This document shows, piece after piece, positions 34,551 to 36,715 of a DNA stretch of 64,000 bases. The translations under genes and the position numbers were made by a program. The stretch spans positions 12,298 to 76,297 of the forward strand of contig DATIWD010000066.1 of the NCBI GenBank assembly GCA_035519565.1, read 5' to 3'. Origin of the DNA: Gemmatimonadales bacterium. GTDB lineage: Bacteria; Gemmatimonadota; Gemmatimonadetes; Gemmatimonadales; GWC2-71-9. Each line of letters opens with the position of its first letter. The stretch's first letter is position 1. The notes under the pieces are model-generated. The model did no database searches and had not been told where the DNA came from. It was given only the letters and a program-made list of their open reading frames with translations.

Positions 34551-35012
34551 TTAGGGTGTTTGAGGCGTAACCGCGATGCTGGCGCCGAAGGCCTGCCAGA
34601 ATTCTTCGATCACCTTGCGGGCTTTTCCATCGACCAGCTGGGCACCGACCCCCGCGAGGGCACCGGTAATTTCGTTGTCCGTGTTCCAGCTCAATCGAGT
34701 TTGACCGGGCTCGATGGTCTCGAGAGTGAATATCCCCTTCAGGTCGAGCGCCGATCCCGGTGCCTTGCCGTGACAGAGGACCTCGAGGCGCTCCGGAGGC
34801 TTCTGGTCGCTGAACTCCACGTCCAGGGTGAGCCCGACTCTGAGGATCCCCATCTTGATCGAGGAGAGAATGGTGAAATGTCGTTCGTCCCGGATCTGAA
34901 CCGATTCCACCCGTGAGGCGTGCTGCGCCAGGAAATGCGGATGGGTCAATCGCGGCCAGATCTCCTCGGGCCTGGCGGCGATCACCGTGGATCCCGATAC
35001 CGTAAATCTCAT
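34551..35012 (-). CDS. CoxG/SRPBCC family protein (carbon monoxide dehydrogenase subunit G-like)
   Basis: 153 aa in a CoxG-like pattern (MRFTVSGSTVIAARPEEIW...LSWNTDNEITGALAGVGAQLVDGKARKVIEEF). Confidence 0.7.
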   Translation of the reverse strand: MRFTVSGSTVIAARPEEIWPRLTHPHFLAQHASRVESVQIRDERHFTILSSIKMGILRVGLTLDVEFSDQKPPERLEVLCHGKAPGSALDLKGIFTLETIEPGQTRLSWNTDNEITGALAGVGAQLVDGKARKVIEEFWQAFGASIAVTPQTP

Positions 35013-35747: not shown

Positions 35748-35776
35748 TTGACCGGGGGCCTCGCCCTTCGTATCGT
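35748..35776 (+). promoter_or_regulatory. Candidate sigma-70 promoter TTGACC-17-TATCGT upstream of the tRNA-Asn leader
   Basis: TTGACC at 35748-35753, a 17-nt spacer, TATCGT at 35771-35776. An ATG follows 10 nt later (35786). Confidence 0.45.
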
Positions 35777-35785
35777 ACCTGCCCT

Positions 35786-35857
35786 ATGACGATGCCGACC
35801 AACCGCCGCAATAATCGAAACTCCAATCGGTTCCTCACCGGAACGGGTAGGGGGTAG
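35786..35857 (+). CDS. Candidate 23-codon leader peptide rich in Asn (and Arg) codons: MTMPTNRRNNRNSNRFLTGTGRG
   Basis: Codons are ATG ACG ATG CCG ACC AAC CGC CGC AAT AAT CGA AAC TCC AAT CGG TTC CTC ACC GGA ACG GGT AGG GGG TAG. Five of the 23 codons are Asn, three of them AAT in a GC-rich genome. There is no SD and the ATG is almost at the predicted TSS. Confidence 0.3.
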   Translation: MTMPTNRRNNRNSNRFLTGTGRG

Positions 35858-35882
35858 CGGTCGCGTTGAGTCGCCGTAGCCC

Positions 35883-35917
35883 AAGACCCGTTCGGATCGA
35901 GCGGGTCTTTCGATTTT
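35883..35917 (+). terminator. Intrinsic-terminator-like hairpin plus T-tract ending 3 nt before tRNA-Asn
   Basis: AAGACCCG (35883-35890) pairs with CGGGTCTT (35902-35909). The stem is extended by T.G and TCG/CGA around a GAT triloop. It is followed by TCGATTTTAA. Confidence 0.55.
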
Positions 35918-35919
35918 AA

Positions 35920-35992
35920 TGGGGTGTAGCTCAACTGGCAGAGCGCCCGGCTGTTAACCGGGAGGTTGCAGGTTCGAAGCCTGCCGCCCCAG
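35920..35992 (+). tRNA. tRNA-Asn (anticodon GTT)
   Basis: Manual cloverleaf. Acceptor is TGGGGTG/CGCCCCA and the D arm GCTC-AACTGGCA-GAGC. The anticodon arm is CCCGG-CTGTTAA-CCGGG. The T arm is GCAGG-TTCGAAG-CCTGC, with discriminator G and no encoded CCA. Confidence 0.9.
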
Positions 35993-36013
35993 CTCGTGGT
36001 ACCGTAGCACGAA

Positions 36014-36057
36014 GGGGGCGGAGAACCGATGCGGCTCTCCGCCCCCTCCTGTTATTT
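36014..36057. terminator. Terminator hairpin (GGGGGCGGAGA / TCTCCGCCCCC) with T-rich tail
   Basis: An 11-bp stem at 36014-36046 is followed by tcctgttattt. It lies between tRNA-Asn and the 3' end of the convergent lipoprotein gene. Confidence 0.65.
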
Positions 36058-36073: not shown

Positions 36074-36715
36074 CTACTTCTCCTTTGGCTCGCCGGCCGG
36101 CGTACCGGCGGCGGGGAGCGTCTTGAAGAGTTCTTCCGCACCCTCGTTGAGCCGTTCCTGAGTCGGATTCTTGGCCGGGTCCTCTTTCTTGACCAGCCCC
36201 TGCCACGCTGCCTTCCCGCTCTTCCGCTCGACCAATTGCACCAGGAAACCCGCCTGCCGGTTCTCGACCGGCGTGGTCGTGCTATAGCCATAGCCGACCC
36301 CTACGGGGGCGTAGCCCCAGCCGTATCCCCAACCAGACCAGCCGGCATAGCCGACGCCCGCGCTGGTGGTAGTGGTGACGTACGAGGTGCTGCTCTTCAC
36401 CCCCAGGGAGTAACGAATGAAGAAGTCCGCCGTCTCGGGGTCATCGACCAGTTTGTACCCCTTCTTCTGCATGTTCGCGTCAACAGCGTTCCGGATTCGC
36501 TGGTGCACGATGCTGTTATTGATGGACGGGTCCGTAGCACCCTGCACGTCCTGCTGGCCCGCCCAGGCATAGGTCGGGGACTGTGGGATGGCGATGGTGT
36601 AATCGCGATCGGTGTCCATTTCCGGCGCGCTCGCGCAGCCGAGCATCGCTGCGGCGGAGAGCATGACACCGAGTCGCCTACCCACCTGACTGACGCTCAT
36701 GGAGATACCTGGCAT
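36074..36715 (-). CDS. DUF4136-like lipoprotein with a Gly/Tyr/Trp-rich insert
   Basis: Start at ATG 36715 (MPGISMSVSQVGRRLGVMLSAAAMLGC lipobox); 213 aa. Contains AGVGYAGWSGWGYGWGYAPVGVGYGYS. The upstream part of the 341-aa track ORF is R/G/P-rich and discarded. Confidence 0.7.
   Translation of the reverse strand: MPGISMSVSQVGRRLGVMLSAAAMLGCASAPEMDTDRDYTIAIPQSPTYAWAGQQDVQGATDPSINNSIVHQRIRNAVDANMQKKGYKLVDDPETADFFIRYSLGVKSSTSYVTTTTSAGVGYAGWSGWGYGWGYAPVGVGYGYSTTTPVENRQAGFLVQLVERKSGKAAWQGLVKKEDPAKNPTQERLNEGAEELFKTLPAAGTPAGEPKEK

Follow-up and report, generated by a model that had tools for sequence, protein, structure and literature searches.

A 64,000-nucleotide (nt) stretch of DNA from a Gemmatimonadales bacterium (assembly GCA_035519565.1, contig DATIWD010000066.1, positions 12,298 to 76,297 of the forward strand), hereafter called the window, contains a single transfer RNA (tRNA) gene according to ARAGORN, namely tRNA-Asn(GTT). 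This gene is preceded by a leader that carries a promoter, a short open reading frame (ORF) with clustered asparagine (Asn) codons, and an intrinsic terminator placed directly before the tRNA. It is quite likely that this leader attenuates transcription by way of a leader peptide and a translating ribosome, and that tRNA-Asn is the product under its control. The evidence for this lies in the anatomy of the leader, its conservation in related genomes, the in-frame constraint on its ORF, its alternative pairings and its strict linkage to tRNA-Asn. In the coordinates of the window, the parts of the locus are as follows.

35748–35776, + strand: leader promoter, with the −35 box TTGACC (35748–35753), a 17-nt spacer and the −10 box TATCGT (35771–35776); from a consensus scan.
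35786–35857, + strand: leader ORF MTMPTNRRNNRNSNRFLTGTGRG of 23 codons, with the stop codon TAG at 35855–35857; from the ORF list, predicted to be leaderless or near-leaderless.
35801–35827, + strand: putative regulatory codon cluster, in which Asn and arginine (Arg) codons alternate; read from the sequence.
35821–35834, + strand: segment 1, the 5′ arm of hairpin P1 (the anti-antiterminator), overlapping Asn codons 12 and 14; from predicted folds.
35838–35853, + strand: segment 2, which is the 3′ arm of P1 and the 5′ strand of the antiterminator (CCGGAACGGGU...), spanning the last codons before the stop; from predicted folds.
35852–35882, + strand: hairpin P2, with the stop codon inside it, enclosed by the 2:3 helix when the leader is antiterminated; from constrained and unconstrained folds.
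35883–35917, + strand: intrinsic terminator, made of segment 3 (35883–35894), a loop, segment 4 (35898–35909) and the T-rich tail TCGATTTT; from a scan and a fold.
35920–35993, + strand: tRNA-Asn(GTT), the sole gene downstream of the candidate attenuator; from ARAGORN and the Rfam tRNA model (66.8 bits).

An earlier note on this DNA had placed a promoter, TTGACC-17-TATCGT, at 35748–35776, and the promoter was found there. The note had also described an ATG without a Shine-Dalgarno sequence, in a near-leaderless position 10 nt after the −10 box. The ORF and the lack of a Shine-Dalgarno sequence held, and the distance between the −10 box and the ATG at 35786 came to 9 nt instead of 10. As the note had read it, the ORF has 23 codons, five of which, within codons 6–14, are Asn codons interleaved with Arg codons. 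They are AAC, AAT, AAT, AAC and AAT at codons 6, 9, 10, 12 and 14, and codons 10–14 form the core AAT-CGA-AAC-TCC-AAT. The hairpin with a T-tract that had been noted at 35883–35909 was likewise recovered; it consists of 12 base pairs (bp) and a 3-nt loop, followed by TCGATTTTAA, and its fold of −19.2 kcal/mol (z = −4.8) was equalled by none of 200 shuffles. The T run ends at 35917, and this leaves 2 nt before the tRNA where the note had counted 3 nt. CCA is not encoded by the tRNA gene.

In a 1.6-kb scan around the locus, promoter-like sites were seen three times as compared to 0.2 expected. A second promoter match, at 35786–35815 (ATGACG-18-AATAAT), was rejected; it lies inside the Asn codons, is not kept in homologues, and is probably a by-product of the AT-rich codons. 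The layout TTGAC-TAnnnT-ATG occurs only once in the window, at this leader, and the frequency of leaderless genes cannot be read from that scan.

For the collection of homologues, 185,579 species genomes were scanned with a 40-nt tRNA-Asn core. This gave 82 loci, nearly all from metagenome-assembled genomes of Gemmatimonadales, on which an iterated nhmmer search seeded with the window leader was run. The module was found in 42 of the 82 tRNA-Asn loci and in the window, in exactly one copy each, always on the strand of the tRNA and 6–147 nt upstream of it. The element is compact (about 170 nt), and its parts stand in the order TTGACC-17/18-TAnnnT promoter, ATG, ORF of 21–23 codons (with an N-R-N-S-N-R core), P1, P2, terminator and tRNA-Asn. 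A covariance model built from the alignment recovered the nhmmer set together with the divergent leaders L020 and L073, and no second copy appeared in 740 kb; the divergent L034 was added by inspection. The homologue L095 is a near-identical relative of the window leader. The family alignment (A3) comprises 58 sequences, and the distinct leaders number 60 in total.

Metagenomes were scanned with a pattern made up of the leader motif only and containing no part of the tRNA. All 26 loci that it returned carry this leader, and wherever the match extended far enough (22 of 22), ARAGORN found tRNA-Asn downstream. It is clear that each locus of sufficient length has tRNA-Asn downstream of the leader. 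Since dozens of related genomes keep the whole module, and tRNA-Asn follows it each time, the arrangement is, as judged by comparison of sequences, not due to chance. In 19 loci, the window included, the terminator lies no more than 32 nt from the tRNA, and the tRNA would therefore be made by read-through only.

Among loci with longer spacers, 14 (L017, L035, L053, L066, L043, L060, L065, L041, L039, L005, L016, L055, L062 and L074) have a conserved CGATAnT box 24–31 nt before the tRNA. This GATAnT box falls in the spacer that follows the terminator, often lies 17 nt downstream of GT(T/A)CAG, and is probably a second, weaker promoter of the tRNA. If so, these 14 genomes would combine a basal input with an attenuator-controlled one.

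Several lines of evidence bear on translation of the leader ORF. The −35 box CTTGACC and a TAnnnT −10 box at 17–18 nt spacing were present in all 30 element-bearing loci that were processed, and the alignment shows the same promoter in the remainder. Across homologues the ATG is invariant at 9–10 nt after the −10 box and is preceded by a pyrimidine-rich stretch that lacks a Shine-Dalgarno sequence. From this distance and this lack, we infer a transcript that is leaderless or nearly so. The 57 unique leaders encode 49 different peptides, of 23 codons in 48 leaders, 22 codons in eight and 21 codons in one, and they end in TAG (55 of 57) or TAA (two). The other two reading frames are closed in these leaders by 50 and 16 stops. 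The six gap runs within the ORF each measure 3 or 6 nt; past the stop, only 7 of 26 are multiples of 3. Conservation of the small ORF in relatives had been set beforehand as a test of the earlier proposal, and the ATG, frame, length, stop and Asn codons 10, 12 and 14 were all found to be kept, with insertions and deletions in frame.

The pattern of variation along the ORF was uneven. Codons 2–9 vary at all three positions and so give no sign of selection at the protein level. Across 55 distinct leaders, codons 10, 12 and 14 almost always encode Asn, and their third positions hardly vary, the usual codons being AAT, AAC and AAC (codon 14 of the window is AAT). Additional Asn codons recur among homologues at codons 6–9 in differing contexts, and Asn accounts for 21.7% of leader residues family-wide. 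Codons 20–23 are fixed even at their third positions, which points to an RNA-level constraint on segment 2. When three leader peptides were compared with NCBIfam (E up to 10) and two with Pfam (E up to 0.01), no family was matched. This indirect evidence suggests that the ORF behaves as a translated regulatory ORF and not as a protein gene.

Both pairings that the earlier note had proposed for the window, GGTTCC (35829–35834) with GGAAC (35840–35844) and GAACGGGT (35841–35848) with ACCCGTTC (35886–35893), are exact and occur in the predicted folds. P1 (35819–35857) folds at −16.5 kcal/mol (z = −2.6). The antiterminator conformer (35838–35897), in which the 2:3 helix encloses P2, folds at −33.7 kcal/mol (z = −4.3), and none of 200 shuffles was as good. 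Segment 2 copies the 3′ arm of the terminator and can pair with its 5′ arm. Free of ribosomes, the full window leader folds as P1 plus the terminator.

The same structures were followed through the family. RNAalifold on the MAFFT alignment gave the terminator alone, and P1 and P2 were defined by hand and via the covariance model. In the unbiased MAFFT alignment, P1, P2 and the terminator combined were 86% paired compared to 34–50% with the partner columns slid, and 16 pairs were changed on both sides. A model-based alignment agreed (86–87% versus 32–50% for both alignments together). Taken singly, the P1 helix was 86% paired family-wide, with changes on both sides in 5 of 12 pairs. The P2 helix, which aligns poorly, was 72–76% paired with such changes in five to six of six pairs. 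The terminator was present in all 60 leaders, and its helix was 94–95% paired.

The 8-bp core of the 2:3 helix was 96% paired, as against 22–51% when slid. Pair 77–132 of this core occurs as AU (40), GC (7), CG (2) and GU (3), of which AU, GC and CG are compensatory variants; at the pair next to it, the window contributes a double change from GC to AU. The upstream stretch that pairs best with the terminator 5′ arm begins 13–17 nt before the stop codon in 56 of 57 leaders. When the 2:3 partners were permuted, the cognate duplexes were the more stable ones in all 5000 permutations. L073, L020 and L034 differ in terminator sequence; in each of them, the upstream stretch that pairs best with the 5′ arm (−17 to −20 kcal/mol) is again found within the ORF or at its end. 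When a ribosome footprint was placed over the last Asn codon and the RNA was cut off ahead of segment 4, 60 of 60 leaders folded as the antiterminator. The 1:2 / 2:3 / 3:4 scheme of the earlier note was thus found to be conserved in its pairings, with some compensatory changes, and the hairpin, for which the note had listed membership of a generic intergenic class as a refuting outcome, proved to be part of this conserved module.

It may be noted that in main-group homologues such as L017 the ACTCGAACCG block contains TCGAACC, the complement of GGTTCGA in the T arm of the tRNA (window 35968–35984). The window leader carries TCCAATC at this place. The match is probably a coincidence of Asn codons with the universal T loop.

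Under the proposed mechanism, the strong promoter would yield an essentially leaderless transcript, the 23-codon ORF of which would be translated at once. When Asn-tRNA(Asn) is plentiful, the ribosome would reach the TAG and cover segment 2, so that segments 3 and 4 form the terminator and transcription ends 2–10 nt before the tRNA. If no ribosome is present, P1 (1:2) would sequester segment 2, and termination would again result. When Asn-tRNA(Asn) is scarce, the ribosome would stall at Asn codon 10, 12 or 14 and cover segment 1. Segment 2, freed in this way, would pair with the 5′ arm of the terminator, enclosing P2, and RNA polymerase would read through into the tRNA, which RNase P would then release from the leader of roughly 130 nt. 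The net effect would be a negative feedback by which the supply of tRNA-Asn is matched to decoding demand.

Four features expected of an attenuator were found here: a short ORF enriched in Asn codons, a terminator before the regulated gene, mutually exclusive 1:2 and 2:3 hairpins, and a gene tied to Asn. It is on balance probable that the system amounts to leader-peptide autoregulation of a tRNA gene, in which the speed of decoding Asn codons would set the transcription of tRNA-Asn, that is, a supply-and-demand homeostat for one tRNA species.

A number of points weigh against this interpretation. Arg is as enriched as Asn in the leader peptides (22.6% compared to 21.7%), and the rare Arg codon CGA at codon 11 (window 35816–35818) is invariant in 55 distinct leaders and is unexplained; it may be a slow codon by design or may reflect an RNA-level constraint. 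Covariation in the 2:3 core is confined to two of its eight pairs, the remaining support being conservation. In ribosome-free equilibrium folds of the full leaders, the terminator was preferred in 35 of 60 and the antiterminator in 25 of 60, and because of these 25 the default state, or the decision between states, must be kinetic. The variant L034, about 130 nt upstream of its tRNA-Asn, keeps the same layout, with a −10 box, an ATG 8 nt further on, an ORF of 20 codons that stops at TAG, then a hairpin, and a terminator that adjoins the tRNA; it has a single Asn codon and may be a relative that has degenerated or been re-tuned. The transcription start and the leaderless translation are predicted from sequence, as are termination and the response to Asn, and literature searches found nothing on leaderless mRNAs in Gemmatimonadota. 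Moreover, whether extra tRNA-Asn would be of use when Asn is short depends on how Asn-tRNA is made. Finally, the standard element is absent from 40 of the 82 related loci and is hence dispensable.

Some of the loci without the standard element carry a promoter directly at tRNA-Asn. Six leader-less loci (L025, L027, L042, L050, L079 and L040) have, about 70 nt upstream of the tRNA, a TTGACC-17-TAGAGT promoter with a 9-bp GC hairpin and T-rich tail close behind it, then the tRNA, with no ORF. These ORF-less hairpins are possibly a remnant of the attenuator or a different control.

The leader might instead be a separate small gene for a basic Asn/Arg-rich micropeptide or for a small RNA of about 130 nt, which ends at its own terminator and senses no Asn, the tRNA being made by constitutive leak-through or, in some genomes, from a second promoter. 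The module does have a strong promoter and a terminator of its own, the GATAnT box of the 14 long-spacer loci could serve as the separate promoter, and in other bacteria both the terminated RNAs of attenuators and their leader peptides are able to work in trans (PMC6614838, PMC7298713). However, the peptide is unconserved beyond the Asn codons and the RNA-pairing segments, as the variation of codons 2–9 at all positions attests, and the C-terminal codons that are fixed even at third positions coincide with segment 2. The conserved mimicry between segments 2 and 4 would have no role in a plain gene, the association of an Asn-rich ORF with tRNA-Asn in 22 of 22 loci from the unbiased scan would be a coincidence, and 19 loci leave no room for a separate tRNA promoter. 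A small gene of this kind is therefore unlikely. The leader might also serve the tRNA structurally, as a 5′ pre-tRNA leader for processing or stability, or act as an insulator against upstream transcription, with no switching at all. A general role of that sort would accommodate the hairpin and T-rich tail that six leader-less loci carry between promoter and tRNA; it leaves the conserved ORF, the Asn codons and the alternative 2:3 pairing unexplained, and a strong hairpin with a U tract behind it would be expected to end transcription and not merely decorate the RNA. The earlier note had also stated that no other + strand gene needs a terminator here, and indeed none lies upstream to be insulated. 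We regard this explanation as most improbable.

Attenuation could also proceed independently of the ribosome, if a protein or tRNA-Asn were to bind AAUCGAAAC/UCGAACC and thereby favour P1 over the antiterminator or the reverse, much as TRAP, PyrR or a T-box would; the ORF would then be incidental. Such binding would fit the conservation of the block AATCGAAACTCGAACCG at the nucleotide level, third positions and the invariant CGA included, and the complementarity of TCGAACC to the T-arm sequence GGTTCGA. It does not fit the features that indicate translation: an ATG that never varies and keeps its distance from the −10 box, a stop that is conserved, alternative frames that are closed, and insertions and deletions that are all in frame. 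Asn codons also recur at the variable codons 6–9 in differing contexts, and neither the T-box nor any other Rfam family was matched even at E = 10. This explanation thus appears decidedly unlikely, and ribosome-mediated attenuation is the reading that we retain.

The surroundings of the leader were also examined. Upstream of it lies a divergent gene for a MobA-like NTP-transferase (PF12804; 35009–35656, minus strand), which is adjoined by a CoxG-like gene (34551–35012). Downstream of tRNA-Asn follows a convergent DUF4136 gene. Between the tRNA 3′ end and the stop of this gene at 36074, one further feature was recorded.

36014–36046, strand not assigned: strong GC hairpin GGGGGCGGAGA...TCTCCGCCCCC, of about −32 kcal/mol (−31.9).

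This hairpin probably terminates transcription from both directions and so marks the end of the tRNA transcription unit, and tRNA-Asn is the only + strand gene between it and the leader. No Asn-related protein gene was found near the leader, the neighbours being genes for CoxG, the MobA-like transferase, DUF4136, MFS and two-component systems. In about 40 loci, whether the leader is present or not, synteny with the MobA-like gene is kept; the locus is therefore orthologous, and the leader has been gained or lost within it. As a separate observation, tandem arrays of 7–8-nt units in 3–7 copies flank tRNA-Asn in about a dozen Gemmatimonadales loci, though none occurs in the window. They lie downstream of the tRNA in L047, L036, L014, L072, L024, L048, L007 and L002, and upstream in L003, L078 and L068. 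Some are inverted, as in L047, where GAGAAGT (6.7 copies) is followed by CTTCTCA (4.3 copies).

Leader-peptide attenuation is textbook knowledge for amino-acid operons and a few synthetase genes, and for bacterial tRNA genes the general view places control at the promoter (growth rate and stringent control) and in processing. With the enterobacterial leaders trpL, hisL, pheL, thrL, leuL and ilvL, the present leader shares a short ORF with clustered codons, 1:2/2:3/3:4 hairpins, an intrinsic terminator, and a stop codon placed so that a terminating ribosome would mask segment 2. Those leaders control enzymes, whereas here the controlled gene would be a tRNA gene and Asn would be sensed. In addition, the Asn codons here alternate with Arg and Ser codons and do not form a run, the ORF is predicted to be leaderless and has no Shine-Dalgarno sequence, and there is no similarity in sequence or by covariance model to the Rfam leaders. 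Rfam scans of the window region and representative homologues gave only the tRNA at the gathering threshold and nothing relevant at E up to 10; the Trp, His, Leu and Thr leader models had no match in these sequences, nor did the T-box model at E up to 10. A T-box riboswitch is, like the attenuator proposed here, a cis-acting leader that senses the charging of a specific tRNA through a terminator/antiterminator switch, but it binds the tRNA directly and has no ORF, while the leader described here bears the signatures of translation.

Further parallels are the attenuators of synthetase genes. In E. coli, pheST has an attenuator with the pheM leader. In such systems a leader peptide senses charged tRNA and controls a component of aminoacylation or decoding. 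The regulated gene there encodes the charging enzyme, whereas here it would be the tRNA gene, so that the sensor reads its own product, and the phylum is Gemmatimonadota. In Streptomyces lividans, leaderless leuL, trpL, alaL and thrL lie upstream of leuS, trpS, alaS and thrS (PMC8079986), and these attenuators are leaderless, as predicted for the present one, and likewise occur in a GC-rich genome. In mycobacteria, leaderless short ORFs with polycysteine are Cys-responsive attenuators (bioRxiv 10.1101/834739). There, as proposed here, the speed at which certain codons of a leaderless short ORF are translated controls downstream expression; their targets are protein-coding operons, unlike the tRNA target and the clear terminator/antiterminator switch seen here.

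The earlier note was aware of no leader-peptide attenuator of a tRNA gene, and our full-text literature searches found neither an attenuator of a tRNA gene nor an Asn leader peptide. The E. coli tRNA-Phe gene pheV was considered as a possible precedent and set aside, as only a promoter, and no leader, lies directly upstream of the tRNA. The element is probably a leader-peptide attenuator of the classical type with a new kind of target, outside any curated family, and the family alignment could seed a new RNA family.

A conserved attenuator of a tRNA gene would represent a new regulatory logic, in which a tRNA senses its own functional abundance in the ribosomal A site. If Asn is made on the tRNA by the AspRS/GatCAB route, the system may also do for Asn what attenuators of biosynthetic operons do for other amino acids, the tRNA serving as the biosynthetic scaffold. 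Leaderless translation in Gemmatimonadota would gain indirect evidence from such an attenuator, and attenuation would be extended to asparagine and to this little-studied phylum.

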